From: an uncultured Bacteroidaceae bacterium
GTDB lineage: Bacteria > Bacteroidota > Bacteroidia > Bacteroidales > P3
DNA: 52,439 nt
NCBI GenBank assembly: GCA_964451895.1
Contig: CAYVJX010000001.1
Span: 7,802 to 60,240 of the forward strand
Direction of reading: 5' to 3'
Part shown: one piece after another, positions 1 to 48,735 of the stretch
Position numbering within the stretch: position 1 is the first letter of the stretch
Layout of the letters: each line of letters starts with the position of its first letter
Made by a program: the position numbers and the translations under genes
The notes under the pieces: model-generated
Database searches by the model: none
What the model saw: the letters and a program-made list of their open reading frames with translations, nothing else
What the model was told of the DNA's origin: nothing

Positions 1-680
1 ACCGTGTCGCATACCGTCTTTGTCTTCACCGTCGGCTTCGGATCCTCCGGTTCGGTCGGCGGAATCTCCGTCATACAACCCGTTATCGCCCTCACCGTAT
101 CGCTACTGCCGTCCGCCGAAGAAACCGTTTCATACGTAACCTCGCAGTCTTCCGGTACTTCGCGGCAGTTGATCTCCGTTCCAGGACCTTCCTCCCGAAC
201 ATAGTTCGGATTCTTCTTCGTTCCTATGTTGATCTTCGTATATACCGTGTCGCATACCGTCTTTGTCTTCACCGTCGGCTTCGGATCCTCCGGTTCGGGA
301 CATATAACCTCTGCCGTAATCACTTCTTCACTGTTATCTACGGCACGATTCTTTTCGTATTTCACCTCACAATTATCGGCAACTTCACGACAATTGGATA
401 CTGTCGCTTGATCATATACATAGTTCGGATTCTTCTTCGTTCCTATGTTTATCAACGTATATACCGTATCACAAATTGTTTTCTTCTTCTGTGGCAGATC
501 CGAGCATGTAATCTTAGCCATAACAAATTCTTCACTGTTATCTACAGCACGATTCTTTTCGTATTCTACCTCACAGTTTTCGGCAACTTCACGACAATTG
601 GATACTGTAACTTGATCATATACATAGTTCGGATTCTTCTTCGTTCCTATGTTTATCAACGTATATGTCGTATCACAAAC
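1..680 (-). repeat. In-frame tandem array of Cys/Lys/Asn/Pro-rich units (68, 73, 81 aa, then a fourth cut by the window edge)
   Basis: Nucleotide repeats: catagttcggattcttcttcgttcctatgtt at about 200, 420 and 623, and accgtgtcgcataccgtctttgtcttcaccgtcggcttcggatcctccggttcgg at 1 and 246. Hand translation of 257-3 gives VCDTVYTKINIGTKKNPNYVREEGPGTEINCREVPEDCEVTYETVSSADGSSDTVRAITGCMTEIPPTEPEDPKPTVKTKTVCDT. Unit boundaries are 477-680, 258-476 and 15-257. A more diverged copy lies at about 680-900. Confidence 0.85.
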
Positions 681-33600: not shown

Positions 33601-36600
33601 TCCAGACTGTCGATACGCAGAATCTGCGCGGTGGCATCGTTCAAGTCCATGCCGTCCTTATACCATTGCAGGCTTACGGGAACGCTGTTGTCGCTCAAAA
33701 CGGCCTTGAGCTGATGTTTCTCTTGTGAGCAATAACGGTTGAAATCCTTTTCGATACCCACATAGGTAGGTTTGCCTTGCTTGCTTTCTACAGTATAGAT
33801 ATACTGCATATTGCAACCATCTTCAAAACCAACTTCAACAGGAATCTGAACCACCGAGCCCGCATTGCCCGCCACCACTTTATAGGTTTTGGTGGTGTCG
33901 CCATTGGGCCAAAGGAATCTCTTGCCGCCGGGAATGCTGATAAGAATCGTATCGCCCACGCAAACCGTAGCATTCATATATACCGGATCGGTGGTATAGT
34001 TCAAGGTAAAGGTTTGGGAACTCTGGCAGATGAAACCGTTTACGGTAAGCGTGGCTTCCAAACGACCCCTCTGCAGGGATGAAGGAACATCCACTCTCAG
34101 CGTGTCTCCCGTAGAACTGGGCGTGGCGGCCGTTTCGGGATAGAACCAACGATATTGAACGCTGTCGTTGTGGCGAGCCTTAATGGTTATCATGCCACCC
34201 GGACAACCCAGATAAGCGTCTTTGAGATCCGTTACAATCTGAGGCAGGATATTGACCTTAACCGTAGAAGGCTTGCTGTTACATTCGTCAACCACTTCAA
34301 CGGCACTGAAAATGTAGTTGCCGGAAGCCAAACCACTAATGTCATACGGATTGGCACGGCTTACCAACTGTTTGAGCGTAAGATCCTTGTACCAATTGAT
34401 AGCCCCACCGCGAGCCGCATCCACTTCCAAAGGCTTGCGCGCGCTTTCGGCACAATAGGTAGTGTCGGAACTGAGCATACGCGGCGCTTCGGGCGTGTTG
34501 TAGGCGTAGAACTCTACCGTATCATATACGTAGCAACCCGTAACCGTGCGGACCGCCACCGGATATGTTCCGTTGGGAATATCGATAAAGTCGGGATCCG
34601 GACCGAACGACTGTGGATCGAATATCGAGTATTCCAAAGTGGTATCGCCTTGGGCATAGATACTGATGATACCGTCGGTCAATTCGCAGGAAGAAGGATA
34701 TACTTCATCAATGTAGTTGATTACAGGCGCCGTACCGATAAATACTTCCACCTTGACCGTGGCGCTCTTGCAAGCACCCAACTGCTGATAGAGATAGAAC
34801 GTCTGACGACCCACGATAGGATCAAACGGCATGGAGTCGCCCGTATGCACCAAGGTTCTGCAAGTGTAGTCCGAGAACCATTTCACTTCCGCTTTCTTGG
34901 TTTTCGGATCCAGAATCAGGTATTGAGGCAGAACATCCCCCACGCAATACGGACCGGCGTTGGCCACCTTAGGTTCTATCGGGCCATTGGGATCACGCAG
35001 GCTGATTTCCGATTTCTTACTCCAGCAACCGTTGTTGTCTGACACTTGAAGCGTGTACATGCCGGCACCCACATTATCCAAAATGTTTGTGGACTTGGCG
35101 GTATCGTTGAAATAGTAGGTATAAGGCTGATTACCACGCGTAGCGTTTATCGCTATCTTACCGTCGGTGGCGGCACAAGCCTTAGGATTGGAAGCCAACG
35201 AAGTGAACGAAGGCGATTCCTTAACACCCAAGTTGATAGACTGCGAACGCATGGGGTTCGGATTAACGCACTGGGCAACGATGCCTTGCGGGGTAAGATA
35301 CGCCTGAACAATATCGTTGGGATATACCTCTTTTATAACAAATACGCTGTCGCGGGTAACATAAACACGCTTACCGTAAGAACCGCTGATAACAACGTCT
35401 ATCTTCTTCTGCAAACCGCTAAGGTTGGTGATGAAGCGAATCTTGGCGGGATCATTTTCGCAACGCGGCGTATCCACCAAAGCGATATCGAAGTAAACCG
35501 AATCGATAACGTGCAGGGTTATAGGATTGCTCGTGGAGTCAGGTTCACAGTAACCGCTTACGTGCAGACGGTACTGATCGCCGTCTTCTTCCCTCTGAAT
35601 ATTCTTAACCAACAACTGAGCGGTACCCGTGTTCGCATACTTGGTATCCGTTGAAGAGAGGCTGGTCCAAACACCGCCATCGAGTTTCTGCCAATCGTAG
35701 GTGAGCGAGGTTTCCCCGGGAGCCGGCTGTCCGCTTACCTTGGTGGTAAAGCGTGCCTGGCCGTCCAAGCAGGCATATATATCAGACTGTTGCGCTGTAG
35801 CCGCTGTAGAAGGCCAAACCTTTACAGAAATTTCCTTGCTGGCGGTACACTTCTTGTCGGAGAATACCGTTACCTTATACTTGACGGGAATAACGGGCTT
35901 AGCTTCCACCAACTGCGATTTGTTGGTGGCGTTGCGGCCGGTAACGATGGAGGTTTGCGGACTCCAAGACAAGCTGTCGATATGGTTGCCAACCACAAAC
36001 AGGCGCACGGCCGTACCCGGACAAATCGTGGTATCGGATGTACTCGATGCGATTTCGGGAGCCGGGTTGAGCTTGACGGTTACCGCCGGGGTACGCACCG
36101 GATTCTGAAGCGGACAAGCATAACTCAAAGTTACTTCGCAAGAAATGCGGTCGCCATCTTTAGGAGCTTTCGTATAGGAAGCGTTTCCATTAAACCCATC
36201 CTGCAAAGTATCATTCAAATACCAGCGATACTGGCTCAAATTACCCGAATAGGCATCGCCCGTCACATTCAATTTGAACCTGTTCGTTTCGTTGGAACAG
36301 AGAACGGTATCACCCACAATTACCGGATGGCTCAACTTACGTGCATTAACCGTAACCGTTATCTTGCCGAATACCGAATCCACCCCATCGAACACTTTGA
36401 TGATATATTCGGTTTTTCCTACCGGACTCACCGTAGAGAGAACGTTGGTGTCGGCCGAAACAAAGTTTGTATTGACCGGCGTGGTATCGAGAGGAACAGA
36501 CTTCCACGAGAAAGTATAGTTGCCCGAACCGCCGTAAGGTTCAAACGGCAGACGAACCGTATCGTTTTCGCAAACCGTGAGTTTTCCATTCTGCGGAAGC

Positions 36601-39600
36601 ACACCCAGCGGACCGCCCTTCAAGCTTACCTTATGGGAATGGCTACCCGAACAGCCATGAATATTGGTAGCGGTAAACGTGTAATCTACTGGACGCTTGA
36701 TAGGCTTGGTGGTTGCCGATAAAGCATTGCTGGCACTCGATAGCTCGTCAGCAGGAGTCCATTGGTAAACCAAGGCCTGACTTTCGCCGGGTTCAACGCC
36801 CGTGCTTTTAACCTCACCCAGCAAGGTATGCTGCGTATTGTATTGAACGATAACGGTAGTGTCCGAACCCGAATGAACCACCGGATTCTTGTGCGCTCTC
36901 AATAAGAATGTATCGGTAGGTTCGGGGTTGGATACCGGACATTCATAACCCGTGTAGATAAACGCTTGTATAAACGCACTGTCTTCCGCCTTGAACACGA
37001 ATTCCTTGCTCTTGCCGTTTTGTTTGCTTACGCCATTTACCCGCCAATCGATGGAATACTTCGAGGAAACCAGCGGATTCTGATGCGAAAGAACAAACTT
37101 AACCTGCGAGCCTTCGCACACCATGGTATCGGGCTGAACCGAAATGCTTCCGATAGCGTGCTGTATCGGATTGATGTACAAACGGGCAACCCCCGTAAGG
37201 TATTCAGGCGTATTGGAATATATGGTATCCCGTTTGGCGGTTTTGTCTTTAACCCCGCTTACACGGCAACGGAACTTGTAGCCGTTCATGCTCATGTTGA
37301 GCGGCGTGATGTTGGCGGGCATATTGCTCGAATCACGACCGATATGCAGACGGGAATAATTGGAGGTTGTGATAATCGTATAAGCGTTCACCAAACTCGG
37401 GTTGATATCCTCCCAGTTGCCCGTTCCGGGGTCAACCTGCCAATCGAACGACATGGACGCACCCGAAGCGGTTATCTCAAAATCGGCTACCGTGCTGTCG
37501 CAAACCGTAATCGGCTTGGGCTGGTTCAAGATGCGTACATCGGTATAGACTTCCACCAATACCGTATCATCCACCACACAACGCCACGGTTCGGTAAGCG
37601 TTACCTTGTAGCGGGTGGTGGCACCCGGCTTAACCGACACATCGCTTCCCGAACAGGAACTACCGCAAGGAGACCATTTATATTCGGCTTCAGGACTACC
37701 GCCCACGGCCTGCAAAGGAGCGGTCTCACCCAGATTGATACCGAAATGATTGGTAGGAACACCACCGTAGAGAATATCCAGATCGGGTTTATCCTTTACA
37801 ACAAAGTGCAGCACGTTGGAAACCTTGGGACGGCAATCCACACAATGGATACTCGATACCAGCAACATACGAACGCTGTCGCCATCCTGTACCGAATCCA
37901 ACGCCAGATAATCCCAACCGCCCTGCAATACGGTGTCTTCGTTGTATAGCCAGATGAACTGAGGCCTGTCGCCACCGTTCACATAACTGGAGCTGATACG
38001 GATCGGATAGTTGCGGCAAACAAGAACACTATCCAAGTCTTGATTGATATTGCTGGCAATCCTAACGTTAACCGTTTTCTTTTCATCTACCGCCGTGCGG
38101 ATAGAACGTGTTACAAAAGGTCTTGCCGTAACACATTCCAACGAAGAATAAACCGCCACGGAAACATTGAAGCCGTCATCGATACCCGCCAGCTTCACAA
38201 TCGAATCGCGGTTCGGGTCTCCAATCGGATTACCGTTGATGCGCCATTCGAACAAGGCACTGTCACCAAATCCGTAGCCGGTTACCCTAAAGACAGCCGT
38301 ATCGCCGAAACACATCCGTTCATAAGGCATATTCGGCACTACCGAATCAATAACGGCATAAACAGGATCCTGATTCCTGGCCGCCACCACTGCCATGGCC
38401 ATCGGCAAGTCTTCGGCATCGGCGCAACCCGGATCGATGGTAACCGTATAAGTACCCGCCATCCTTGCCGTAAAGCCGGCACGGAACGGGCTTTGTTCCC
38501 TGGCCACCCAACCGTCGGGACCCCTCCATATATAGGAGGCACCCGCTACCGTATCGGTGGTCAGGAAAAGCGTATCGCCGATACAAACCATCGAATCGGC
38601 GTATATCCTATACGTTGTAGTATCACAAGGAATCCCCTTGCGGGCAAAACCATCGGAACGACCGCCGGCATAAAGCGGATAGAAGATACCCGGTACACGC
38701 ATGGTGATATGGCCGTCGCCCAAACCACCCATATACGGCCAAGCTTTAGGCGCCATCATTCCCATCGAATGATGACCGTCGCCGATACCCCCTAGGAACG
38801 GAACGGCGAAGAATATCTTCATGGTGGATGTAACATGGCCATCGCCGATACCGCCCAGGAAGTTGGGGGCATAAATCATCTTCATGGAAGACGAGGTGTG
38901 ACCATCGCCGATACCCCCCAAATAATTGGTGGCGTAAATCATCGGTGTGCCTTCCGAAGTATGACCGTCGCCGATACCACCCAAGTAATTGGTGGCGTAA
39001 ATCATCGGTGTGCCTTCCGAGGTATGACCGTCGCCGATACCGCCCAAGTAAGTAGGCTTGTAAACCATTGGCGTGCCTTCCGAGGTATGACCATCACCGA
39101 TACCGCCCAAATAGGTAGGCTTGTAAATCATCGGCATGCTTTCCGAAGTATGACCATCACCGATACCGCCCAAATAAGAAGGCTTAAAGATTATGGGCTG
39201 CTGAACGCTCGAATGCCCGTCGCCGATACCGCCTAAATAGGCCGGTTTGTGTATAATAGGCAACTGTACGCTTGAATGGCCGTCACCGATCCCCCCCAAA
39301 TACACCGGCTTGTGAACTACCGGATTCTGAACAAAAGAACCGCCATCCCCGATACCCCCCATAGCCGGACGTGCCGGCTTTGGCGACTTATGGATGACCG
39401 ACGCCCCAGAAGTTCCAATACCACCAAAGAAAGGTCCTTCGTCTTCATCCCCCAAGGGAAAGTCTCCGGGAAGATCCGCCGGATACGAAATTGGAATAAA
39501 GGGTTCCGGCAAAAGCATATCCCCATCAGAGGCCTGCGGATACAGCATAGGCTCCGCCAACGAGAACGCCTGATAACCCCGCCTTTCGGATACCGAAACA

Positions 39601-39779
39601 GCCTGGTTCAAGTTGGGCAAAACAGCCGGAGCGGATACCGAAAGAGCGGCCTCCTCTCTTAAAGCCTCTTGCTTTAGAGACGAAAGCCGCGCCACCGTGG
39701 CACTGCCCGCGGCAACTCCGGTCAGACACAAACCGAGAATCGCCCACTTACGTATGTTCTGTCGGTTAAGAGCTTTCAA
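1..39779 (-). CDS. Giant secreted SprB-like / Ig-PKD-repeat cell-surface protein: 13,259 codons in the window, 3' end beyond the left edge, absent from the supplied ORF track
   Basis: The frame is the reverse complement with codons on plus coordinates 3n..3n+2. It was open and in the same register everywhere I hand-translated: 39,779-39,600; 39,023-38,961; 35,250-35,040; 33,440-33,360; 25,080-25,020; 19,427-19,200; 16,370-16,320; 9,345-9,300; 7,568-7,440; 5,640-5,590; 4,740-4,680; 257-3. The track lists about 40 minus-strand ORFs in 1-39,779 and none is in this register. A frame with any in-window stop would have been listed, as pieces or whole, so there is no stop before the window edge. An in-frame TAG at 39,783-39,785 bounds it upstream. 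The first start codon is TTG at 39,779-39,777, giving MKALNRQNIRKWAILGLCLTGVAAGSATVARLSSLKQEALREEAALSVSAPAVLPNLNQA. Examples read from sequence: AQAIGGTAPYTYTWSP (about 5.6 kb), QVIGGSGEYTYRWKGNGISYDSL (33.4 kb), ACAATDGKIAINATRGNQPYTYYFNDTAKSTNILDNVGAGMYTLQVSDNNGCW (35.1 kb, SprB-repeat-like). Confidence 0.93.
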   Translation of the reverse strand, partial: MKALNRQNIRKWAILGLCLTGVAAGSATVARLSSLKQEALREEAALSVSAPAVLPNLNQAVSVSERRGYQAFSLAEPMLYPQASDGDMLLPEPFIPISYPADLPGDFPLGDEDEGPFFGGIGTSGASVIHKSPKPARPAMGGIGDGGSFVQNPVVHKPVYLGGIGDGHSSVQLPIIHKPAYLGGIGDGHSSVQQPIIFKPSYLGGIGDGHTSESMPMIYKPTYLGGIGDGHTSEGTPMVYKPTYLGGIGDGHTSEGTPMIYATNYLGGIGDGHTSEGTPMIYATNYLGGIGDGHTSSSMKMIYAPNFLGGIGDGHVTSTMKIFFAVPFLGGIGDGHHSMGMMAPKAWPYMGGLGDGHITMRVPGIFYPLYAGGRSDGFARKGIPCDTTTYRIYADSMVCIGDTLFLTTDTVAGASYIWRGPDGWVAREQSPFRAGFTARMAGTYTVTIDPGCADAEDLPMAMAVVAARNQDPVYAVIDSVVPNMPYERMCFGDTAVFRVTGYGFGDSALFEWRINGNPIGDPNRDSIVKLAGIDDGFNVSVAVYSSLECVTARPFVTRSIRTAVDEKKTVNVRIASNINQDLDSVLVCRNYPIRISSSYVNGGDRPQFIWLYNEDTVLQGGWDYLALDSVQDGDSVRMLLVSSIHCVDCRPKVSNVLHFVVKDKPDLDILYGGVPTNHFGINLGETAPLQAVGGSPEAEYKWSPCGSSCSGSDVSVKPGATTRYKVTLTEPWRCVVDDTVLVEVYTDVRILNQPKPITVCDSTVADFEITASGASMSFDWQVDPGTGNWEDINPSLVNAYTIITTSNYSRLHIGRDSSNMPANITPLNMSMNGYKFRCRVSGVKDKTAKRDTIYSNTPEYLTGVARLYINPIQHAIGSISVQPDTMVCEGSQVKFVLSHQNPLVSSKYSIDWRVNGVSKQNGKSKEFVFKAEDSAFIQAFIYTGYECPVSNPEPTDTFLLRAHKNPVVHSGSDTTVIVQYNTQHTLLGEVKSTGVEPGESQALVYQWTPADELSSASNALSATTKPIKRPVDYTFTATNIHGCSGSHSHKVSLKGGPLGVLPQNGKLTVCENDTVRLPFEPYGGSGNYTFSWKSVPLDTTPVNTNFVSADTNVLSTVSPVGKTEYIIKVFDGVDSVFGKITVTVNARKLSHPVIVGDTVLCSNETNRFKLNVTGDAYSGNLSQYRWYLNDTLQDGFNGNASYTKAPKDGDRISCEVTLSYACPLQNPVRTPAVTVKLNPAPEIASSTSDTTICPGTAVRLFVVGNHIDSLSWSPQTSIVTGRNATNKSQLVEAKPVIPVKYKVTVFSDKKCTASKEISVKVWPSTAATAQQSDIYACLDGQARFTTKVSGQPAPGETSLTYDWQKLDGGVWTSLSSTDTKYANTGTAQLLVKNIQREEDGDQYRLHVSGYCEPDSTSNPITLHVIDSVYFDIALVDTPRCENDPAKIRFITNLSGLQKKIDVVISGSYGKRVYVTRDSVFVIKEVYPNDIVQAYLTPQGIVAQCVNPNPMRSQSINLGVKESPSFTSLASNPKACAATDGKIAINATRGNQPYTYYFNDTAKSTNILDNVGAGMYTLQVSDNNGCWSKKSEISLRDPNGPIEPKVANAGPYCVGDVLPQYLILDPKTKKAEVKWFSDYTCRTLVHTGDSMPFDPIVGRQTFYLYQQLGACKSATVKVEVFIGTAPVINYIDEVYPSSCELTDGIISIYAQGDTTLEYSIFDPQSFGPDPDFIDIPNGTYPVAVRTVTGCYVYDTVEFYAYNTPEAPRMLSSDTTYCAESARKPLEVDAARGGAINWYKDLTLKQLVSRANPYDISGLASGNYIFSAVEVVDECNSKPSTVKVNILPQIVTDLKDAYLGCPGGMITIKARHNDSVQYRWFYPETAATPSSTGDTLRVDVPSSLQRGRLEATLTVNGFICQSSQTFTLNYTTDPVYMNATVCVGDTILISIPGGKRFLWPNGDTTKTYKVVAGNAGSVVQIPVEVGFEDGCNMQYIYTVESKQGKPTYVGIEKDFNRYCSQEKHQLKAVLSDNSVPVSLQWYKDGMDLNDATAQILRIDSLDAGIYTYVVKATAKEFCTTPQETYDTVQVKVFETPVVYAGPDVIDLPYGEKAKVGMGAQVIGGSGEYTYRWKGNGISYDSLRYPVYTNRLYTGTTVTLYATDTVSGCVGKDDVDITIAGGPFRIKVTAPEVVCQGDTARLNVLAEGGSGKYAYHWKELPSGAFVDSTATTKPVLNSQTTFAVMVVNLTEGGHTAADTLRDTVTVKVDNLPVAGHIYTPDTTMCQDTSYLLLLKDYFGDAIVWEKSCEGVIWSDMGASSDSVLRTGECATNHYRAWVSNGVCPAHLTEEYRVHIHQPITNIISGPVPGGTLCPETDSVQFGGNDLPSGYTYQWQYGMDEVHFKSCPAPDDTAFKYTWINAIDSSRYIRRVVYYDGCPFISSTIKVSVYDDSNIGEIEGENYVCIDSVGYMSVPNTSMASYRWEVATDTTKDSADWTEVLGGTTFTCSTKQMERGDTLFYRAIGQKNSCEPDTTGIFHVIATDPLPVAIFISADTTEVCLNNFVTFTVDSVHFEGKKPLYYWYVNGNELSLPVKKGKDTLAYASKDGKTLYISTLLPGDSVQCALASSIGCVTERLAMSNAIKPLVYVPLVKMVEPASDLTFCRRDIIKLRADSAQYYRWAYFGTDDTAVMPMKGNSFIYFDTVTKVSPTVVTTYYVYGTDRHGCTGIDSVTLTPEPLFTALTPDTTICAGSKLSLKAVPASTRGVTYSWREVAVRDTNTARTLPDNTARNTITPAVIPLDSLTYYIYTINTPAPRYCSFTDTIRVFVEQNETPAVSIDYEGIRYNDTVHIIECDKREHFFSYESEWAGDEPKYKWIFNGEDVSHDSLFSDHYPYMVDHSSLYVEMESSRRCVTERTVKSNKFFVKYTKMPEAVVSINSNKGLKVCPNEEVVIFQAHAPTYDTGIFEWYVKYADSSRFAHVHTGDSLVSRFATGDQVYCIYVAKDTCIKYSPKQSNTLRFDNYPLYKPQVEIVGLNSGVDGNGDTVCEGATTVFTARLADQGSDYRLVWLVDGMEVGTPNSLTLSYSAFIAGHRDSAYRQSRVTARLETKHICAVPSNLNADDTLVYIKPRKALGVIIEQDVLQACNSLREEQVAFTHVYGPLSVSGNTIIANCSYQYWNTGAVSQQTIEDNGGVSAYAGNTTSHQMFGLTSRKDVTHYSHIDYAIYFDYGTIQIYENGDYKGSFGGYNTAQKYTVEIADSVVRYLRDGVVFHTSQTRDTIGLYRGGFSLHADNCRRPNMRAYIEYRNSSIVFGSTVYEPPVNKPDYNWMVNGVPFEFGNGEDTLYDHKYRFEPYDVVTLVVHSNDVCMERENAESNPITVHPTDPGNFLQLADTAYVCRGDSVRLTASGAKTYEWTLPVDMDTATVHDSSIVVWPAQTTTYRVTGANDEGCSDFKRIVVVVFELPDPNLGPDREVCYTDSLYFSVRNGAVPDSVTDRFYRTEWTFITPTDTVALTSPYDNAISFDAEESGVLVAKMVNKYSGCYTLDTLNLTVHPLPHIKMPDTLQVCISHDLAIFDSAYDQDYKKVNTYTWTPTTRISNGNGYTNGSYKIFNSADTGFFTYYVDVKTPKNCHAYDTVYVRNIKQELALNAELIRQTICEGETPRFILTGQWWDTLATAVLYRNGSQVATYTVGHTGESQRDTVSYTGTVANKDRFQFKLTSLNPCLVVKQIMSNFDTLGVIYNTTLASTPDSLCIGHDLTLQAQPRQDTNVHYTWTMFNGYEQTVIRYIGATPDTVHETVYINHGAFGFDTNTVVVPMPSLPTYFMVEADGGHGCVTRDTAYVGIIRADTLWAHVEQTLDSCYNPEMAYPTWDFTSPALIPMAGGQIIKDGSQGAGWNYITSPTVLHGNFMYRYVISGKEGYAMVGINYEGRSHNSCYGWWYNWCGYDADYTFYLVGGSGENNLRIYERGNHVWTGGSYKEGDVLFIVRQSGYINYYQNEVLVRRVKERSPSLNFNPEISMYSPGTSVDPVRYVELQNIELSSSAGTIASKINHKWYVNGKVVSTDSILKVHEAGFTGMNDTLVYEVSGQTKCDGLQTVRDTLAVQSPKGYTPVFLLLTTDSTQCQGRDFTVRAHLINRSGEVPDSAIRYNWYRGDLRIASATRADSIVITNAGINEYVWAQAYVDTIAKHCAFNNIKNPVRSSYLTLPVEPAKVLGVNVDVFPGQTVCLFSDVLFNATQVVSGLPDAGENPTVEWYLNGRFVSSDKTYRTDSLQDGDSVYAIITASAEVQCLDTNRKQTRVVHMDVLPAPVLAAHKDTIVTYNSEAKLWAEVIKNWEPNLKYEWYPSFDISEPYSANDSATVVKSRIDHIYTVQARNSIGCYSNEASVHVEVLTCPQFILRGSGTKACAGDTAFIYLQVQGFRPYTNIYFWQISHDNGATWRTLDPLTDGDFDIRVGTNSVTLVLAKTLAAYDKANSLFRCGAVATDTLLTCDTVYSRSAFIDVVDYTIPVAKVYGDTAICPRSPVIFTASGAVNPGDYYQWYVNGQMAAGNGSTLSLDSVKGNTQISVSTIIRNDQNACVDNAKATDTLHISVYPQPQLVMYPDTAIHIGDTAPVGVLVSGGTTPYTYSWNGLPNTTLFATNTDSTATKNQLFTTIYTVTVTDSNHCSAKGSMTVSIEDTCKLYVSIYGPKTVCFDSSVTFKGLVTGGLQNADIHYMWRCVPVVDTTVVTFTGKEFTVRALKPGTYNLTFAAVDSSEYVKELCPDEPHSATATFQFTVEPPKTFEVRIDTLAALCAGTESTLTATSYVNGSAATIAVSYAWQQYDRLGNIVKAQNSTSAQFVVKNWTEYDWVSVAATMGGDECETGMVVYDTLRPVINPQPGPLQARRIYVGGLEPCTFDTAVIGLNVPMAQEGQVQYTIDGGKTWHSDSLFTPVEDGDYYPGVKFIATGCEYISDTVIIVSLPEPSKMPDVQVKGDSSICMGVLADSLVAYDGHRGSIMVWYADSALTQVLAQSAVNAGRVAYGLPDSIKNTIGVYTFYAAQYAGDCKSDPKPFTVTVREADTANGMQLHYVKRFKCVDDGVAVPVKVSVQFDTINVEGIYQWTVLTGQAISGTGKEVSVDVVDSARICVVFTYVSSCDATTRTLYSDTISIRVAGIENTLSPGSLICIGDSTVAHSLDESGLSDTSFKYTWQTKTYDASTGKWTWNAATGNSKQENYTVYHSYLQPVEGKPTGYKQLSVRRILSVDGCSDTSAEIIFYYSPAPTATATISVPEVCVGYMVGATVSGTYLGTAPYANWYVNDMLVKTHDTLAVNLGVLAQGSKVRAVVYPVYDTMCPIVDSLVVEDTVKLKEAIAADIKITVADTLFCTPGNTFTASYNIGYSNDPQYKWFYNGVRVDSADGKSSYTRMNVKPGDSVYVMIHATVDCPAADSVRSASVLAGHRAPTVSGSVEAVPDTSLMKLDSIKFVASGADSYLWQDNNATGSVHHVYAKSGQSVYCVQLHTDGYCDTVLCVSSVIPTAGLTVPPVCEKQDVNAFVTGSNLGVSPYVNWYVNDTLVAAADTLVKNFGKRKDSTLITAVVYPDYSALVLPAGTATVDSIVLNVYASVTEAIKGKVSISVEDSLFCSLSNTFKATYNAEYSDTPQYRWYHNGVLMASANGMASYTSNNVKNGDSVCVVIFARNDCPASDSVRSDYYYARKGQIVPASIDVAATDTLCLGDTLRVKVSGADSYAWNDNSTDSARIFTAIQTPTTYSVTAHTDGYCDTTLSVTVVSRVRPANTKLVQNSLTICGDDTATLWITKAPGTGVLWNTGHTSDTIRVVVPNGKDSTIKVVFTDVYGCEFGPDSVTVQVRDSRPVNFVKDNLGLPDTACWRSQFSAVARVEPNDKADMYFTWYRSGAYWKSGYNLDSLALKGTDFPSASPYEITVIVQDNGICLRMRQDTIVDTIVVEQPKQAGINIQSNSHIDNDTLRICVGEATRLFSAVSNAGPVFEDGSHNWYIEWYRNGTFVQRGDTVTFAHLPIGSQIYAILYVDTTECNYAINSPVKSRVLTVVSVPQPDVQVELSLKLDTICSNSEYQVQAYVTNGGTDPQYRWYVNGFLATMGDERGNTVPINSPILDIIDIKQQAAQHGTNYDIVCWVKSSLPCAADSVRNKGVSTLVVFPADTLDVIISPQVDTACAYDNGNVVVTMHADVIGMAEGYDIEEPDLQWYVAATENDAPTPIAGATDKDLHYTTKNLTGNEVFSVRAFSKYLCTWNSSLVSEKARILLWPISSEAGVNDTVRNYADFVFSTDTAIGGTPHWITRGDGHFVYTDTSHPTYVLGVADKKSEGIWLVQEVTNKFGCYAADSMFLFISHCEDYKLEKDWADRIICGSETISLENRMVAKSGALSAVDSASYWFTVITDTVIDTLAVTKDLAFAWSGLFDTTRTYVLHATVNDLDCRYVDTMRVALHTVPVINFPDTLHACANHALDIQDSAYNSAAKADYSYTWNPSTYLSGQTANLSYVKFNSVDSGWFTYVVDAATPAGCHSYDTVHVYNVKHELTAQLTLLDRWICEGDTLRMAISGDWWLENATAQLYRNNVLVQTDTVGRAGRKQADTLVYGGEIKHGDIFLVVINSNDECLTTKTVTSNYEYVSVVYPTKIDAVPDSLCVDYDLTLNAMPKQDTGIHYKWTAFNDSASIYVHHKTIGKDTSVVVLPMPDASTYFEVEATGYGCTSRDTVYVKFMRSDSLWVTAEQIIDTCNSPTPQTPQWRSSGEMIYINGAQIIHNAGNYWNYLTSTTDMEGDFIYRYVISGKEAPAMVGINYKGRTHTNCSYWWWNWCGYDADYCFYISQEGGQPQLMIYERGGRVWSGSLWHEGDILYIIRQNGYINFYQNEVLVRRVKEREPNRAFNPEVSLHNVGTAVDPINYVALPQIKVDNKSGYIAGKKSHKWYINGELASTDSILRTLSTGLTDNDTLVYEVSGTTNCGEFQMASDTIIIQKPEGYSPVFLTLSHDGKKCEGSDYMVHTHIINRTEAIPDSAIRYNWYRQTELVAAGTQADSFLFTKVGRDEYVWAQAYVDSSYSGCAFNSWHNPVRSPFLYLPIEPSKKMGVNIDVYPGDSVCRFAEVLFNATQVISGMLDAGEKPTVEWFLNGKFVSAEKTYRTDSVEEGDSIYAIITASPEVLCLDTNRMQTKTLGMHVLTTPVITAHKDTVVEYNKEANIWAEVIENWESGITYEWYPSFDIRSPYKKTDSATVVRAKIDHYYTVQARNRIGCASNEASVHVEVLSCPQFILRGAGTETCLGDTAYVYLQVQGYRPYSNNYFWEMSTDHGTTWTVVDTSGDDYSIRTGLDNVTLLIHKATMAHDVSNALFRCAAIATDPRLEYCDTAYSSNVYVKVIHYVQPVAQMSGDSAACVDVPAEFTATGAVNEGDYYLWYRNDVLAPSNGANFILDSIDGRDESILVTVKIRNDENICVKESVDSMRVNVYPGSKLVMLPDTVIQMGDTAVVGVTVIGNSAPYSYSWNGLPNTTLETPYLSQSLTKDQYYTTRYTVTVTDSNGCRIRGNMMVRIADTCLVATSIYGPNSICMDKTGKFEAFVTGGLESSNLHMMWSMTPQMDTSVIAPNGKEISFRAMQPGTYTLTLTVSDTSEVTKKYCSEESQTMSVSTTITVDPKKDVRVKINGPSQICEGSTHALRAILTIDGVQTGIYRTFAWYRVDRFGNSSLFSFHRHDSPNDDNICGETIRNWGKGEKIVVAATLYGGDCEAGTVVYDTLAPYVMTTPGPLNVRDMYISGLMPCTFDTAAIGLTVPVEQRDSILYSIDGGNTWSSNALFQPVADGYYYPAVKFSTNGCEYHSPNTVLIKLPPAKPMPAIKVSGDGEYCLYNPIDTLVAYDGYNGAVVGWYADADRNVVLVEGAQGESSVAYIIPDSVHKTLGEYIYYAGQHLGRCQSELTQVPVTVRERDTVIGFKLGFVKRYNCNADSTPVWVDVYAEHEKNNVEGVYNWYSVYPVAFKGSGSRVQVATVDSNTVYATFTYTSACTGKVETVYSDTLKIDISQLPNTLIPGVSICPDSSVLVHAIDSLDFDTTFSFRWEAHYFTMHLGSGSWSWGLAPGVNDEENYTLHHSSLYHVYGTPEQRKELTVRRVVYAEGCYSVSDPVTFYYHPLPIPKPVLDLPRTCRGYDLTASVSGQGIDSVTTYVNWYVNDVLVKKNGLISENLGALLDGDAVKAVVYPLYDTLCPVFDSVILTGNAKVDTAIEADLWIKASDTLFCGTQGTFTAMFNSGYTDNPRYKWYYNGNHIAAADGSQTYSRSWHEGDSVYVAILANNMCTVTESAQSPVLYIHRGTTVAGSLNINPDTSICLGDTLRVAAQGGTTYTWSDGATGANRDFIATDIDRKYTLTIHTDHYCDSVIDVNVVSRKRPANTHLVQSKMTICGDDTAHIVANVDPGVHVLWSTGDTGAILRLPMMSHKHEVKVQATFVDAYGCPFGPDEILLDIHDNRPVDFAENTLHLPDSICWRETFSAVANVTPADKDSIYYAWYINNEFWLGHAGYNRNVLNDLKGADFTSSAPYIIKVVLQDNGWCRLNRQDTLVDTIVVIQPRDAGINIQSNSTIDGDTIRICVGETTRLFAAVSEAGPVFEDGSHNWYIEWYKDGSLVRTADTVTFKGDLPVGSHIKALLYVDKTEYCYAKNSPVWSRELTVASVPVPKVEVDLDLKVDTVCSNEDYRIVANVTNGGTNPVYHWYVNGSLVTTVDNGGNTIPLDMPYLDLVNIKQQEDGSNYDIICWVKSSLPCANDSVRNDDTATLVVFPADTLQVTISPEIDTACSYLNGDIEVILKATVTGRAVAFDVEEPDLQWYRNGQPLFGYTKKNFRYISKDITNEDEFSVMAFSRYRCTWNSALISDTAHVVLRPVIPDAGKDDSIYNYADYRFYSDTAIGGEPHWITRGDGLFVNADTIHPLYKLGEEDKKSDGIWLVLEVTNAFGCSALDSMFLFVSHCEDYGWFTDVADVTICHDKTIEVVNHLEAKPGAVYPVEKANYALVALSAGTYATDTLAKSNDLTFSWTGVVDTTRTLVLTGSSNGYGCPYTDTVNVTVLPLNEISVELTQHGNDTCQNFAANTGNWDITPGHYDLHWDYNASTGVLSHTHCNNASDLVSTDFGAANTMMRYVATGNELAGMVGFNYEGRRSSELDYGVYFNYGTINLYYLGYATDYMPIGTYQAGDVFTIIRTDDKVYFYVDQNNEHKLLRVLDEPEYGIGRRVNYAIGSYRVGATFNNIWYLNQPATKIGNKITFDPLPGKLSYAWSLNDSIVSTDSLWNAEKFHVHDGDRVKLCVEGITVCDTVSVCDSLTISSIDVYSPMYLTLVRDSMNECDGDAFTLTATAHNLPAGIDASRLRYNWYQNGKVLATGTTSNVYMLDSAHIGDYAYAEAYILDDICVVNNQAKPAVSHRVTFDLKENKELGVALTTNVAVEPAVCPNTEVIFTANVTNGGSYTVNWFVNGKFHAVGDNLSMRADTTYSVYARVDAKNDAVCLDIDTIYSDTLTVNVLPAPVVEAWSDTVVDKGSAVALNGKVVANADTVMTYHWTGCGGIERADTLHTTAVANNSCVYYLTAFNSIGCASEPDTVFVDVYDCPSLASVDVPAVICENDSAVVRVNVYGFKPETNSYKWQISTNNGTTWSDLSAGSRYAMSQDRLGGQLVVRNVSTDISAGTAIFRCVVKATDSALAFCPAVITPDIKLNVDITARNLPTIQIVGQSDFCTNSATVGTVYSVNITPGYEVAWKQNGSGVLEYDGNDHRRGYTVADGDKVIGVLYSGNTCIDRLQISDTLTVHFHPQPSLTAWTDTTIAYGDFAALHAKLTNGTGPVVYSWTPADKVLNADTAHTFTTALFESTVFNVEATDSVSCGAKGRVVVIVSDTCVRKVELDGPTSVCADEVAQFTGLVTGGGVVGNYDLSWRIEPALSTNDGSLFVPNAGATLNIADAVPGDYTIIFTVTDTSAAVKTYCDPDGVVMSDTAVLNIYAPDTLAVSLSSLADSVCEGETITLVAHATINSTPDADAALTYEWFRIRNGFNSYIGSASDTLNIYNAADRDVYYVIVSENGDCHVNNHARSNNDTVTVHPVPEPLKPYQVYAHSHISCVEDVAYIRIDADTSLHLLYSIDSGATWHAKYLFDTLEKGTYHVMVKGEAGCEAQGVQTVYIDVQPDLNFAAPDVAFDSIVSCIDNLTPIVAYNKQSGYLGWFTDSALTHRLAISEQDADSMVYTPVIDTPGRYLFYIKKGLGDCEGPATKVIYIAGTCNIRLEPAPAGLCPDDSTKLYAVIDEATRNISKHWSYQYSANGKFDTTTVVVSRFDKMDTIFVKDTGYYRIVDTTYWNTVMYSNVSRVQMGSYAKFGAGCIDIAYPTAGAVAMCAGDGEVKISVNCMTSDYYVVWPDSSRNNSYTKNFDTATDVKIVVKSVIGDCPVDTTVRVVVLPKQYIKLSYNDTTICLGNEAKVSIMLPKIMDSGTVYPPYSNYEWRYKTGLDYTDGEYNEQDVNYNGSLMLSGLKVKSGDYTDYTYVAQAFASLASCPSVTDTLRIRVRRNNFILAPDSLTFCSGESDSISLPAADSIGINGIFMPYVSKLAVGPITRDSIMAITLYNDACRATDTLKIRYILPDSLVASLSPVADTCAEITADTMKWNGSTLHTAANGWQSVYAADTLKANAELNYVVSGQERAMVIGLEYIDNNRGLWNKPYSLYLSDNGSEDSRKFYFYESGWEVNYTAAGDYRMGDLFTVRRSGGHVEYYHNGTLLRRVAEPEALKSNAMRISASNYYQGSDIAPLSVASIPAPQISTSLYHRYDDLHYAWFVNGMSVSNDSVLDNGYILVEGDTVVWQVTSYGICDTAMSADTLVIDSQNAYASIGVNLTSGSKSVCRGEAVELTADITRLPDGVSLGDVRYNWYINGTAVALDNTSATYTHNNVADGDYAHVEVYADGLCLLNGKSNPARSNTLYFNVDTAEQVELALDIQPAAAVCEGEEMQFTAVMRGLKYAPTIEWFVNGMNKGTGNSLTLADAKTGDSIYAVATFDAEENCQGGKTLRSNTLKLSVNPVPVVKAITDTTVLRGATVPLTGIVTAGWTPGMQYVWSPATLTNDTLTTAVVTNITTYTFTAVNAYGCQAEAQVQVDVESPYKEECAYLSAQSAINAPAVCEGDSTSFTVTVSGSKPDAYSYNWQISADNGNTWNDIAAPLYVNRGTSLHIPAVTSSMNGSLYRAVIVPDAAHSHCDTLYSLPFKLAVKTSSRQHNISIDGDGELCANAETFAYILNASVQAGDHFFWYLNNILVGQDIATLNLNKEQLGKGGILKALWQMASGDCASQIAYADSIEIAVGDELSVVAGNDTVIDKNTTAALFAQAIGGTAPYTYTWSPALSTTVTPEGRTLTQPLASTTVFTVTATGAHGCEATAQVKVTVKDTCLQDVVISGPRTGNQTSCQGEQVELQALVSGGMPGNYTIEWTVAPALAADEYVPVQNNSDLWIKPSMPGVYTIQVTVTDTSALAAAHCEASQLVQTTQITLTVTGKDTLAVSLDRPDSVCQNVEFSLNAHATLNGQAAANVNYHWYRVRNNVVYDLGMGGAMLVPTDALDADRYFVVASSTEECLANSEAVSDTVESVLYPVPTKLKPSDVVYTPGRMCSDDTASLEIKGSYKVAQIKSRWPQTLYYSIDNGANWQTSTLFKPLPDSAMFQVVVKNQYGCIDANNRLDIKRAPQTIDAWIEAGPDDTIVAGQTFRVHGDTVAAPGTPHWTTSGTGTFVNADTLHPVYIPSDADVVAGKVKLYLSVNSNNYCPLKDSLTLYILECGVYSIVRNGGDTVVACGDETLTFIGKLASDNAALTPPKADYEWRFIDIVFGSGYTVEHSDMNADSSRWEPADPTPGMYELYVKTVTNCVLTDTFYLDIQSIPTGEGTIELIYPGGNNAISMCINDTARIVVTDDSGLNTYIWPDGTESDGVSNNTYAVTATKDTSVIVKITSKGGCVGYDTIEIAVDKPFALSLSRNDTTVCVGNDVRLPKISAPGYGSIAPLTTYVWKNSHGDTVDAGNYAAQNRPVMTITQDTVYRAYAYTEAHCQSAVAEYKVATDKYRLVLADTLYACYGDKVKFAMPAATKNYTLNGASFNAASSAAFDVETSSLYNDTVLVVTATDTLGCGNSDTVMVHVLPLPDMNIVNPGACANQPLVLRLPNLDSTDECKWEVNTVSGTYNFTGDTITFRPGASDSILYIDLKVTNRLGCIYTKKDTVNVYMWPDLNIHDTAVCEGLEGITLIPNYSSVNATYNVTWLRKGLDSATKLPHSTYHELAVTDTVSHRYYFELKNKTNGCTDTGSVMVNITRLPKLKHIVDDTLCVNEPTYIFTYDNVGQFEAEDDAATQWSCMEYLSNGSQKAGYIDPSFVSTLKTQRIKVDYRPSDEIKALGGVAHFVVYTTGKNECAGIKVADSFNLVFTDPLEVLVSDDQYVCISTGKDAKIAVDLRPTFENIAGYEFKIDTTKVKVDQVWGSEHKQGTLIYHNPGGDTNVVCHDTLRVWNEEGCELVRPFSVEFVGGAPYVKPDTLTICPGDTVTVKVSNPNSQLDPIWRNIETGRLVTRGNEVRLSPANTTMYRITQLESADPACTGITTEDTLTIVVRDRILVETAGDTNVCEITDVKVGVTEVSQNVHRYQWIDSATGDVISTDSAFMMKAVSSNHTFFLTVWNDSTGCTDHDTLRLTYGGNLYKLNFYDTTVYVGTTIDVVVHGPWPTEKDPACPYEWFNETDTLTICNLDSIWHLQATKTTDYTLYLRGGETECYNRLRVNVIRLNLHDTAVCDYCPTEIGIDSVEIDYVEWYYLDTLRFTSGHSEPVETQFCFDDTVRNKHQVITDSLYYHAYVIPYPYKVKESDTVPAGPFCDTVYSEPYIELAYDGKRSAKHDTKTEDIDVYKEFLHWNKVEVLCKEPAPGKKFVCDTLFMVMCFPDFEGLTILRFGEGMLVNCREVDSICVVVGTEDHLNNSWNEDTVTLTLDCSVSEPPTGGPTIVCDTTYTLINIGTKKNPNYVYDQVTVSNCREVAENCEVEYEKNRAVDNSEEFVMAKITCSDLPQKKKTICDTVYTLINIGTKKNPNYVYDQATVSNCREVADNCEVKYEKNRAVDNSEEVITAEVICPEPEDPKPTVKTKTVCDTVYTKINIGTKKNPNYVREEGPGTEINCREVPEDCEVTYETVSSADGSSDTVRAITGCMTEIPPTEPEDPKPTVKTKTVCDT
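4640..7700 (-). repeat. Core cassette IV (~3.0 kb) of the giant ORF; boundaries approximate
   Basis: It starts with ...RKFYFYESGWEVNYTAAGDYRMGDLFTVRRSGGHVEYYHNGTL (hand-translated 7,568-7,440). It ends with KSRWPQTLYYSIDNGANWQT (4,740-4,680). It contains YSYNWQISADNGNTWNDIAAPLY (about 6.15 kb) and AQAIGGTAPYTYTWSP (about 5.6 kb) at positions equivalent to those in cassettes I-III. Confidence 0.6.
9250..12330 (-). repeat. Core cassette III (~3.0 kb) of the giant ORF; boundaries approximate
   Basis: It starts with RYVATGNELAGMVGFNYEGRR...INLYYLG...GDVFTIIRTDDKVYFYVDQN (about 12.3-12.0 kb). It ends with DTSLHLLYSIDSGATWHAKY (9,345-9,300). The intervening module order matches cassettes I, II and IV. 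Confidence 0.6.
16280..19430 (-). repeat. Core cassette II (~3.1 kb) of the giant ORF; boundaries approximate
   Basis: Hand-translated start: TDMEGDFIYRYVISGKEAPAMVGINYKGRTHTNCSYWWWNWCGYDADYCFYISQEGGQPQLMIYERGGRVWSGSLW (19,427-19,200). It ends with QRDSILYSIDGGNTWSSNAL (16,370-16,320). In a 60-nt stretch I counted, 17941-18000 versus 26584-26643, 50 of 60 positions are identical. Confidence 0.7.
24950..28110 (-). repeat. Core cassette I (~3.1 kb, about 1,000 aa) of the giant ORF; boundaries approximate
   Basis: It begins on the N-terminal (high-coordinate) side with the module FMYRYVISGKEGYAMVGINYEGRSHNSCYGWWYNWCGYDADY...IYERG...YINYYQNEVLVRRV. It ends with the SprB-like module QVQYTIDGGKTWHSD (about 25.0 kb). 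Module order is the same as in cassettes II-IV. Anchor nucleotide match: 27996 aligns with 19350 and 12261 (gtagttga.acccaccatg). Confidence 0.7.
38646..39422 (-). repeat. In-frame tandem array of 13 units of 63 nt (21 aa) with a GG[IL]GDGH core
   Basis: The His codon (plus-strand atg or gtg) recurs at exact 63-nt spacing at 38709, 38772, 38835, 38898, 38961, 39024, 39087, 39150, 39213 and 39276. A GGIGDGG unit sits at 39339, and degenerate units flank the array (GGIGTSG near 39402, GGRSDGF near 38646). One unit translated by hand reads TSEGTPMIYATNYLGGIGDGH. The units at 38898 and 38961 differ at 5 of 63 nt. Confidence 0.92.
39690..39779 (-). other. Predicted N-terminal signal peptide of the giant ORF
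   Basis: The translated N-terminus is MKALNRQNIRKWAILGLCLTGVAAGSATVA. It has a basic n-region (K, R, R, K), a hydrophobic core (WAILGLCLTGVAAG) and a small-residue A-T-V-A stretch. The cleavage site is not determined. Confidence 0.55.
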
Positions 39780-43443: not shown

Positions 43444-43705
43444 AATCCCTTTATTTATAATATTTAAAATTATCAACAATTTGTTGAAAACATTTTTTAC
43501 CAACCGCTAAGATACTCATTCCTCGGCAACCAACCAAAAAAGTTAATAAGTTTTTTAGGGGGAGAGTAAAACAGGGTATTGCTTACAAGAAAAATCCTCG
43601 GTATCTTTCTCCGCGTTTTTGTTACCGGGCTGGCGAAACTTTACTTTTTTATCCTAAAATTTCAACCTATCCCGATAGTTTCATGCCCCAAACCGCAAAA
43701 AAACG

Positions 43706-47940: not shown

Positions 47941-47941
47941 C

Positions 47942-48520
47942 TCACTTTTGTTTAAAAAGTTTATTCACGTCTCTTTCCAACGTTTTACTTCCATAAATCG
48001 GAAGGATCTCCTTTATCTTTTTGTAGGAAAGGATGTGGGTGTTATCAAACTCTCTTTGCTTATTCAGGTACATAAGGTCGAGCAAGGCACGCTCGGGCGT
48101 GGCAATACTGTAACCATCCTTTTGAACAATCCCTGCATCTTGACACAAAATCGAGCCTTTTATTTTGCGATAGCGGAATGTATTTCCGTCCACCTCTACA
48201 TCTCGCGACAGGTAACTGACGGCCGTAATGGAGGAATCATATTGAAAGACCACACCAACGCGTTGCAACACATATTCCAAGGAAATGTAAGAGGGGCGGT
48301 ACAGGCGATTGCACAGTTCCTCAACACGATAACCAGGTTTGGCATAAATACCGCGGCGAGGATTCAAAAGCCGCCCTCTCTGCACTTGATAATTCAAACG
48401 TTTTACGAGTACCGACATGTTTTCCTTAAAATCGGTAAGCATTGCCACCATAGGCAAAGTAAATACCGTATAATAAGAACTATAGATAACAAGCAATTCG
48501 TTGCATCGTGAACTATACAT
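47942..48520 (-). CDS. abiEi: AbiEi-family antitoxin / transcriptional regulator, 192 aa
   Basis: Listed ORF with an ATG start. RRGIYAKPGY and RPSYISLEYVLQRVGV match the AbiEi pattern (RG.Y..., SYISLE.AL...G) as I recall it. Gene order and tight coupling with AbiEii support the call. Confidence 0.75.
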   Translation of the reverse strand: MYSSRCNELLVIYSSYYTVFTLPMVAMLTDFKENMSVLVKRLNYQVQRGRLLNPRRGIYAKPGYRVEELCNRLYRPSYISLEYVLQRVGVVFQYDSSITAVSYLSRDVEVDGNTFRYRKIKGSILCQDAGIVQKDGYSIATPERALLDLMYLNKQREFDNTHILSYKKIKEILPIYGSKTLERDVNKLFKQK

Positions 48521-48722: not shown

Positions 48723-48735
48723 GCTATTTTTGCAT

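Follow-up and report, generated by a model that had tools for sequence, protein, structure and literature searches.

The 52,439-nucleotide stretch of an uncultured Bacteroidaceae bacterium analysed here (the window; contig CAYVJX010000001.1, positions 7,802 to 60,240) carries on its minus strand a single giant gene, 3..39779, which starts at a TTG codon, stays open over 13,259 codons and runs out of the window without a stop, its C-terminus lying beyond base 1. The giant protein therefore has at least 13,259 residues and a mass of at least 1.45 MDa (1,454.5 kDa and a pI of 4.9 for the part encoded in the window). Its modules follow one another in this order: a signal peptide or signal anchor, a Pro-rich linker, 12 repeats of 21 residues with a GGxGDG motif, a chain of Ig-like domains of about 95 residues each, and at least 4.2 repeats of 62 residues with four cysteines. 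By analogy with known giant adhesins, we consider it probable that the product is a heavily O-glycosylated, non-cytoplasmic fibre acting as a long-reach surface adhesin of a host-associated Bacteroidales bacterium. Giant adhesin-like genes are a known kind; what is new here is a rare Bacteroidales family which has the domains typical of type IX secretion system (T9SS) cargo and no T9SS tag.

A preliminary description of this DNA had proposed one giant minus-strand gene leaving the window unclosed inside a tandem repeat. Translation of the reverse complement of 3..39779 bears out both statements: not one in-frame stop is met between the TTG at 39779 and base 3, where the frame exits within a tandem 62-residue repeat (...KPTVKTKTVCDT, the last letters being KTKTVCDT). 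In the four frames out of register with it, this span is interrupted by 540-726 stops, and at those stop densities the probability that 13,259 codons remain open by chance is about 1e-240 to 1e-324. The gene was absent from the open reading frame (ORF) track simply because that listing omits frames running off the sequence, and shows a plus-strand chain in their place. Upstream, the frame is closed by a TAG at 39785-39783. Only a GTT codon, which cannot serve as a start, separates this stop from position 39779, and translation could begin no earlier than at the TTG found there (in our numbering, residue 1 is the GTT codon and residue 2 the TTG start). In a DNA alignment, this TTG is conserved in the relative P0014 (locus L008), where it is the called start (MKTSNRLDIRRW...); the context is the same in the two sequences, the TTG lying 10-11 nt past the stop of the upstream gene.

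We then compared the window with L001, a locus from an independent ENA assembly reached through protein P0001, whose alignment with the gene extends over 14.5 kb, with 82% of the nucleotides identical. The mismatches per site amount to 0.122, 0.093 and 0.287 at positions 1, 2 and 3 of the minus-frame codons. This excess at the third position means that the minus-strand product is under purifying selection; the minus strand is the coding strand. All the Pfam, PDB and homologue matches belong to the minus-frame product as well.

The plus strand displays, between 408 and 38795, a chain of 19 antisense shadow ORFs of 202-1,513 residues, whose codons are exactly in phase with those of the giant gene. 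The 37 stops found in this register correspond to 10 TTA, 5 CTA and 22 TCA sense codons of the giant gene: the shadow ORFs are there because the gene avoids these three codons. One may still ask whether the true genes are these ORFs, with the minus frame as a by-product, as long plus-strand ORFs do exist and some were called as genes in the assembly GCA_948621625.1. We regard this possibility as effectively refuted already, since every one of these ORFs lies in the antisense register and their stops are merely rare sense codons of the other strand, since substitutions fall mostly at position 3 of the minus frame, since the database matches are all on the minus-frame product, and since Pfam found no match in the products of the shadow ORFs. 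They are nevertheless a trap for gene callers, and the expectation that such genes are fragmented or mis-stranded by annotation came true in GCA_948621625.1. On its contig CAPGVE010000005.1 (locus L009, 1-9273), five wrong-strand shadow ORFs of 734, 1,321, 417, 168 and 541 residues are annotated, while the annotation of the true giant gene is limited to a 192-residue C-terminal scrap. The same locus contains a scaffold gap of 97 N (9899-9995) within the C-terminal Cys repeats.

The N-terminus, described as signal-peptide-like from the start, indeed consists of a basic n-region followed by a 19-residue hydrophobic stretch and by 'TVA|R' (39687..39779, minus strand; MKALNRQNIRK + WAILGLCLTGVAAGSATVA + RLSS, with the TTG conserved in the DNA alignment), and it is conserved in P0014 (MKTSNRLDIRRWLIAGLCLTVVAIGGATVARLSS). 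Both a cleaved signal peptide and a signal anchor would fit this sequence. A lipoprotein signal was considered and dropped: the Cys of the hydrophobic h-region is preceded by Leu (position -1) and followed by hydrophobic residues, which makes a lipobox unlikely. A Pro/Asp-rich linker (residues ~33-118) separates the signal from the GGxGDG[H] repeat module (38628..39428, minus strand), where 12 motifs recur with an exact spacing of 21 residues between residues 142 and 373, as given by a 63-bp period in Tandem Repeats Finder and by regular-expression spacing. Homologues of these repeats form the entire passenger of small Bacteroidota proteins (280-460 residues) ending in a T9SS C-terminal domain (CTD) of type A, PF18962. 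We also considered two other secretion types. An RTX adhesin of the type I secretion system (T1SS; LapA/MpIBP type), which would have nonapeptide repeats towards its C-terminus and no Sec signal, was rejected, as the GGxGDG period is 21 residues, the module is N-terminal and the protein starts with a Sec-like signal; nor did the neighbourhood yield transporter genes of this system. A type V secretion system (T5SS) reading was rejected too, as its signatures are absent.

Most of the protein is a long, all-beta chain rich in V, T, S, D and G, with 308 cysteines. The autocorrelation of the cysteines peaks at ~30 and ~60 residues, then at ~95, 190, 290 and 385 residues. This indicates a chain of two-cysteine Ig-like domains of ~95 residues, roughly 120 in number as estimated from the Cys periodicity; the segmentation of the chain was based on this periodicity together with phmmer searches of tiles of the protein against itself. 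The description of a modular Ig/PKD-like protein thus holds. Pfam recognises Ig_7 ('CHU_C associated') at E ~1e-24, with two stretches in each of two segments. Ig_7/SprB-like domains resembling the stem of GhpA, the grappling-hook protein of Aureispira, occupy 33864..35273, minus strand (residues ~1504-1973), with Ig_7 at residues 1764-1847 (E 5e-25), and a second strong Ig_7 domain lies at 9447..9710, minus strand (residues ~10025-10112, E 4e-24). PKD_3 is barely above its threshold (27.1 bits vs a cut-off of 26.3), and Ig_3, I-set, BiPBP_C and K319L-like PKD score near the Pfam cut-offs. A phmmer search against the PDB matched residues ~1,504-1,973 to many stem repeats of GhpA (9flp_A, E 2.7e-60, 13 stretches), so this Ig segment is detectably homologous to the GhpA stem; the same search returned no match for the middle and C-terminal thirds of the protein. 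The remote matches of the giant protein are all Ig proteins with a T9SS CTD.

We cut the protein into chunks and compared it with itself by BLASTP. Residues ~3,300-11,800 are mostly built from old, diverged super-repeats, while residues 400-3,300 and 11,800-12,900 are essentially unique. The first copy spans residues ~3801-6475 (20358..28382, minus strand) and the second residues ~6687-9108 (12459..19724, minus strand); residues 3801-5520 align with 6687-8407 and residues 5521-6475 with 8157-9108, each segment being at least ~38-39% identical. A third and a fourth copy are also present, with weaker similarity. In the relatives at L006 and L007, which are contigs of GTDB-representative metagenome-assembled genomes (MAGs), residues 1-600 were compared with residues 6,028-9,258 of the window protein, and both copies jump from residue ~6,335 to residue ~8,964, which are paralogous positions. 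These two relatives appear to be without one super-repeat of ~2,630 residues. Such a jump points to in-register gain or loss of super-modules, and the gene has probably grown and shrunk by gaining and losing modules of ~2,600 residues.

Repeats raise the question of the assembly: could the gene be a chimera, in which the assembly has strung together several shorter, paralogous adhesin genes? The super-repeats themselves, the absence of one copy from L006 and L007, the breaks of public short-read assemblies at the N- and C-terminal repeats and the fact that residues ~264-6,027 are without independent assembly support in the collections searched would all agree with this. We nevertheless judge it very improbable. 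The copies of the super-repeat are only ~38-55% identical as proteins and at most 70% as DNA, too diverged for a mis-join; 39.8 kb are crossed without a stop or frame break; codon bias and the density of glycosylation sequons are uniform along the gene. Further, relatives in three independent assemblies are collinear with the window protein, at 46-92% amino-acid identity: the last ~4,850 residues with L001 and, from residue ~8,960 on, also with L006 and L007. The closest internal DNA repeats, the N-terminal 63-bp repeats, are 77% identical over 528 bp and the next ones 68-70% over 1.3-1.7 kb, which is too diverged to be likely to mislead an assembler. The support for residues ~264-6,027 is internal, namely the unbroken frame, the uniform codon bias and the uniform motif density. 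No close relative spanning the super-repeat junction (residues 5,800-7,000) was found, only remote T9SS Ig proteins. The Logan contigs bearing genes of the window are short and end within the N-terminal repeats. An exact 51-mer of the left end had no match in the genome contigs and metagenome contigs searched for a leftward extension. We concluded that the giant gene is real, and intact as far as it goes.

Five inserts of ~170 residues interrupt the chain, at residues ~3125-3335, 3845-4045, 6735-6935, 9085-9295 and 10645-10850. On the minus strand, they lie at 29778..30410 (the most diverged), 27648..28250, 18978..19580, 11898..12530 and 7233..7850; their alignment assigns the first, fourth and fifth a concanavalin A (ConA)/SPRY-like fold, and the third is 55% identical to the second. 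The second was modelled with AlphaFold2 (AF2; predicted local distance difference test, pLDDT, 75; pTM 0.76), and a Foldseek search of the model against the PDB returned SPRY/B30.2, GH16, CBM66 and the lectin domains of ERGIC-53/Emp47, at E ~1e-6 and TM ~0.58. The model places the inserts in the concanavalin-A-like jelly-roll class of binding modules.

The C-terminal region of the window protein, which begins at an invariant IPYPYKVKE motif (3..1385, minus strand), is specific to the family and has no Pfam, NCBIfam or PDB match. It ends in the ~62-residue four-Cys tandem repeats (3..917, minus strand), with four full units at 717-896, 504-677, 300-473 and 75-254 and the start of a fifth. Their consensus, KKTVCDTVYTL.N.GTK..P.Y...NCREV..xCxVxYE...A.D....T..A...C, contains four invariant cysteines, and linkers rich in Pro and Glu lie between the units. 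For the C-terminal 461 residues, AF2 gave an overall poor model (pLDDT 44), the repeat units reaching 65-79 and being modelled as beta hairpins. Among 1.84 billion cluster representatives, only 12 match these 461 residues at E <= 1e-3; all are fragments of 71-1,505 residues, recorded as 'hypothetical protein, partial' in MAGs that bear the labels Bacteroidales bacterium, Bacteroides sp. or Lentimicrobiaceae bacterium. A scan of JGI metagenome contigs for related loci yielded no relatives. One relative contig in GTDB is titled 'Ruminococcus flavefaciens', which we consider a binning or label problem because this contig carries a neighbour with a T9SS CTD. The family is thus very rare and has never been annotated, the public records found being all partial hypothetical proteins. 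Few genes exceed 10,000 codons, and those that do are routinely broken by assembly and annotation. The nearly complete copy described here gives the first end-to-end view of the family, minus its last few repeats, and the protein may be among the largest of gut Bacteroidales.

The general O-glycosylation motif of the Bacteroidota is D-(S/T)-(A/I/L/V/M/T) (PMC8550257); it is restricted to non-cytoplasmic proteins, which are glycosylated on the periplasmic side (PMC12871550). We counted 342 such sequons in the giant protein, compared with 65 +/- 8 in 500 shuffles preserving the composition (maximum 88), an enrichment of about 5-fold. The sequons are spread evenly, with 18-37 per 1,000 residues, and the control motifs (with E, with N, or reversed) are not enriched in this protein. 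This enrichment is good evidence that the giant protein is non-cytoplasmic, and is suggestive of a predicted dense O-glycosylation.

The preliminary description went further and saw in the gene the architecture of T9SS-dependent gliding adhesins. One part of this stands, namely the types of domains and the CTD-bearing genes which adjoin the relatives. The other part does not, as neither a CTD, nor a PorP/SprF gene, nor above-threshold SprB or Asp-box modules were found. The single stretch resembling SprB repeats (PF13573) reaches 17.4 bits for a cut-off of 28, and the supposed BNR/Asp-box modules reach 17.6-21.2 bits for a cut-off of 27. No PorP/SprF gene is present among the ORFs within ~12 kb upstream, in the window, nor within ~10 kb downstream in L001, L007 and L009, where the preliminary description would have had us look for it. 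As for the CTD, the 13,259 residues contain none, and the seven relatives whose C-terminus is complete are also without it: each of the seven ends 1-6 residues past the last Cys of its last repeat (...AVVTCN in P0001 of L001, ...AVVHCE in L007, ...AASDCE in P0037 of L009, ...KVTCN in P0038, ...AICKE in P0039, ...VTDCE in P0041 and ...SCKAIKED in P0043). NCBIfam found no family in P0001, nor did Pfam in the C-terminus of L007. We also aligned, with hhalign, a profile of 33 Cys-repeat units with profiles of the type A and type B CTDs built from the matches obtained here; the probability is 0.5% for type A and 0.1% for type B, while the control alignment of type A with type B gives E 3.5e-4 over 59 columns. 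Hence the nearest relatives, so far as their predicted C-termini tell, lack the feature which defines T9SS cargo, a CTD of type A or B. Membership of the present copy among the SprB/T9SS adhesins is not affirmable because its C-terminus lies outside the window, and the closest evidence speaks against it.

A canonical SprB-type gliding adhesin, with an unseen type B CTD and a PorP/SprF anchor and moved along the cell surface, is therefore in our opinion an unlikely identity for the protein. It would account for the Ig_7 'CHU_C-associated' domains, for the homology to GhpA, itself a T9SS substrate, for the PF13585 or PF18962 domain carried by all the remote relatives and for the T9SS cargo genes which adjoin the giant gene in relatives; moreover, some T9SS cargo, such as ChiA of F. 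johnsoniae, has a CTD which fits neither model. It is contradicted by the seven C-termini stopping after the last Cys repeat, by the hhalign comparison, in which the repeat resembles neither CTD type although the control works, by the absence of a PorP/SprF neighbour and by the sub-threshold SprB match; besides, gut Bacteroidales are not known gliders. No core T9SS gene was found in the window or in the loci of relatives examined. The neighbours with type A or B CTDs in L001, L007 and L009 imply that a T9SS exists in those genomes. Export of the giant protein itself by this system is unsupported, and yet no other route is known for such Ig-rich giants in this phylum.

The reading that we prefer, that of a glycosylated adhesive fibre, would work as follows. 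The giant protein would be exported by Sec through its N-terminal signal, would be O-glycosylated on the periplasmic side at many of the 342 sequons, as other non-cytoplasmic proteins of Bacteroidota are, and would form, on display, a fibre with a length of a few hundred nm. The length is proposed by analogy: fibres of Ig domains measure about 4 nm per domain, so that the chain could span several hundred nm. The ConA-like modules and the Cys-rich terminal beads would bind glycan or protein ligands on the host, on food particles or on other cells. If this is true, such a fibre, glycosylated and provided with lectin-like modules, could be important when the cell attaches to gut mucus, dietary particles or other microbes.

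Several points weigh against this reading. Surface display is deduced from analogy and from the enrichment in sequons, part of which could be due to a structural 'DT' motif of Ig domains. Neither the NCBIfam (TIGR04183) nor the Pfam models (Por_Secre_tail, CHU_C) detect a T9SS CTD over the 13,259 residues, the C-terminus of this copy is outside the window, and canonical features of every kind looked for (T9SS CTD, PorP/SprF, lipobox, T1SS, T5SS) were not found. The confidence of the ConA-like model is no more than moderate (pLDDT 75, TM ~0.58). The number of Ig domains is a periodicity estimate, an iterative hidden Markov model seeded with Ig_7 having failed to propagate because the domains are too diverged. 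To the unsupported residues ~264-6,027 mentioned above, one must add that at L001 (ENA scaffold_133) a frame break divides the relative into the ORFs 4-9459 and 9251-14521, which overlap and are read in different frames. The break at 9251-9459 is a frameshift or an assembly error, and some copies of the gene may be decaying or mis-sequenced.

The same facts could be arranged around a protein which never reaches the surface, that is, a periplasmic or envelope scaffold anchored in the inner membrane by an uncleaved signal anchor and not crossing the outer membrane. The h-region is long (19 residues), the n-region and the sequence after the transmembrane segment are conserved, a Pro-rich linker follows that segment, no signal for export through the outer membrane was recognised, and most O-glycosylated proteins belong to the periplasm or to membranes (PMC12871550). 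However, a 1.45-MDa chain of ~120 Ig domains far exceeds the width of the periplasm, the detectable relatives of its domains are all extracellular T9SS cargo, and binding outside the cell is the typical role of ConA-like and Cys-rich modules. We hold this location to be improbable, somewhat more so than gliding.

If the protein does reach the surface, a giant family without either type of CTD would need a non-canonical signal or a partner for its export. The candidate partners would be the conserved CTD-bearing protein encoded downstream or the two proteins with an FGE fold encoded upstream. The nearer FGE-sulfatase-fold gene (39790..41427, minus strand; PF03781, 33 bits) encodes a signal peptide, and is probably in the same operon as the giant gene because its stop lies only 10 nt before the giant start; the second, a paralogue 30% identical to the first (41542..43503, minus strand; PF03781, 39 bits), has a signal peptide too. 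L008 and L002 show the same arrangement, with FGE genes upstream of the giant gene. A joint profile of both proteins matches only the FGE/SUMF1 core in the PDB (E 1e-6); NCBIfam gives no match for either at E <= 0.01, and none to GldJ/GldK, if its library holds such models. No paired-Cys motif of the FGE active site was seen by eye in their C-terminal region. These two proteins are probably non-catalytic. An FGE-type modification of the giant protein was considered and found unlikely, as the CxPxR motif is absent from it.

Downstream, L001 and L007 encode a protein of 1,010-1,017 residues with a type A CTD (TIGR04183 at 27 bits vs 23 in L001; PF18962 at 27.0 bits in L007, equal to the cut-off of 27), and then a C69 peptidase. 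The former protein (L001 14592-17624, L007 13737-16790) begins with a long hydrophobic N-terminal leader and displays paired 'NGNDAT..Q..V' motifs; the idea that it could be a cohesin or dockerin was discarded, as Pfam finds no match even at E <= 10. In L009, the giant gene is followed by a 952-residue protein for which no CTD was recorded, a C69 peptidase, an ORF of 53 residues and a PKD_6 + CHU_C protein of 3,171 residues with a type B CTD. The gene of the latter (15733-20579) is the fourth called gene past the giant gene, and probably corresponds to a partial PKD_6 gene at the same position in L001 (19594-22650). This locus may group the genes of several large surface proteins.

The order FGE, FGE, giant, ~1,000-residue CTD protein, peptidase C69 is pieced together from separate loci, the FGE genes upstream coming from the window, L002 and L008, and the CTD protein and the C69 peptidase downstream from L001 and L007. 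It is tempting to see in the cassette of two FGE-fold proteins, a CTD-less giant and a type A CTD protein of ~1,000 residues an undescribed way of exporting or anchoring a megadalton fibre, but we give this idea little credence for the time being, about as little as the gliding adhesin. The tagless giant would then be carried or tethered by its partner, for example through its four-Cys beads bound to the CTD-bearing neighbour; alternatively, the solenoid of 12 x 21-residue GGxGDG repeats would be the anchor proximal to the cell. The FGE-fold pair would be structural, like PorK/GldJ, and not enzymatic. With domains of T9SS cargo but no sorting domain, and beside genes which have one, this family is a test case for the recognition, export and anchoring of very large substrates in the phylum.

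We compared the giant protein with known systems. GhpA of Aureispira sp. CCB-QB1 (PDB 9flp, 5,898 residues) is the only protein of solved structure with sequence similarity to it. GhpA, which has an N-terminal hook and a heptameric stem, is also a giant protein of Bacteroidota, with a Sec signal, Ig-like domains with inter-domain disulfide cysteines, putative O-glycans on all these domains and a role in long-reach adhesion. By contrast, GhpA possesses a C-terminal T9SS domain and the downstream genes ghpB/C (PorP/PorE homologues), both absent from the family of the window as examined. The window protein is more than 2.2 times longer, shows no detectable similarity to GhpA in its middle and C-terminal thirds, and is the only one of the two to have the five ConA-like inserts, the N-terminal GGxGDG module and the C-terminal Cys-rich repeats. 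SprB of Flavobacterium johnsoniae (6,497 residues; bioRxiv 10.1101/2024.01.29.577165) is likewise a giant, repetitive, Ig-like surface filament of Bacteroidota, with the weak resemblance in SprB repeats (17.4 bits) given above. The window family differs from it by the absence of a type B CTD and of a sprF-like gene and by its host, a gut Bacteroidales not known to glide; its 13,259 codons make it about twice the size of SprB, as the preliminary description had estimated.

The Ig/PKD proteins ending in CHU_C or Por_Secre_tail, generic T9SS cargo of 1-2 thousand residues, have Ig_7, PKD and Ig_3-type domains in common with the giant protein at 21-29% identity. One of them, P0033, also has a legume-lectin-like domain, and the GGxGDG repeat module recurs in their small members. 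Their C-terminus is in every case PF13585 or PF18962, whereas the window family ends in its own four-Cys repeat, and the sizes are 7-10 fold apart. Other bacterial giants reach 85,804 residues in Omnitrophota, 36,805 in Chlorobi and 10-30 thousand in gut Clostridia (bioRxiv 10.1101/2023.11.21.568195). They too are encoded by rare genes for more than 10,000 residues, fragmented in assemblies, with an inferred role in adhesion between cells or to cell surfaces, but no homology with them was detected, their domain vocabulary and phylum differ, and the window protein is far below the size record. The giant protein has domain ancestry in common with GhpA, with SprB and with further Ig-repeat adhesins of the T9SS, without being demonstrably one of them. 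That it works like them is the best-supported reading, made by analogy.

Finally, the window contains other genes beyond the two FGE-fold paralogues, and no tRNA or Rfam feature. A stretch of low GC content at 44-48 kb (36-38%, compared with 50-56% in the giant gene) holds a complete AbiE pair (toxin-antitoxin, abortive infection) on the minus strand (47170-48520), made of the AbiEii nucleotidyltransferase toxin (47170-47940, PADLOC E 1e-89) and the AbiEi antitoxin (47942-48520, E 3e-73). In the same islet, beside AbiE, a plus-strand ORF (45224-47002) encodes a Lys/Asn/Ile-rich orphan of 592 residues, with no match in Pfam or PADLOC, which may be mobile or defence cargo. Two adjacent plus-strand ORFs in different frames, 48700-49284 and 49313-49936, encode a Schlafen AlbA_2 domain, then HATPase_c_4 and a winged helix-turn-helix. 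They look like a single AlbA_2-type regulator or defence-associated gene split by a frameshift, whether through decay to a pseudogene or through an error of sequencing; in PADLOC, the second ORF has a weak match to the models of the SIR2/PNTD proteins associated with pAgo. On the minus strand, 49951-51126 encodes a protein of the serine beta-lactamase / penicillin-binding family (PF00144, E 1e-26), apparently unrelated to the giant gene.

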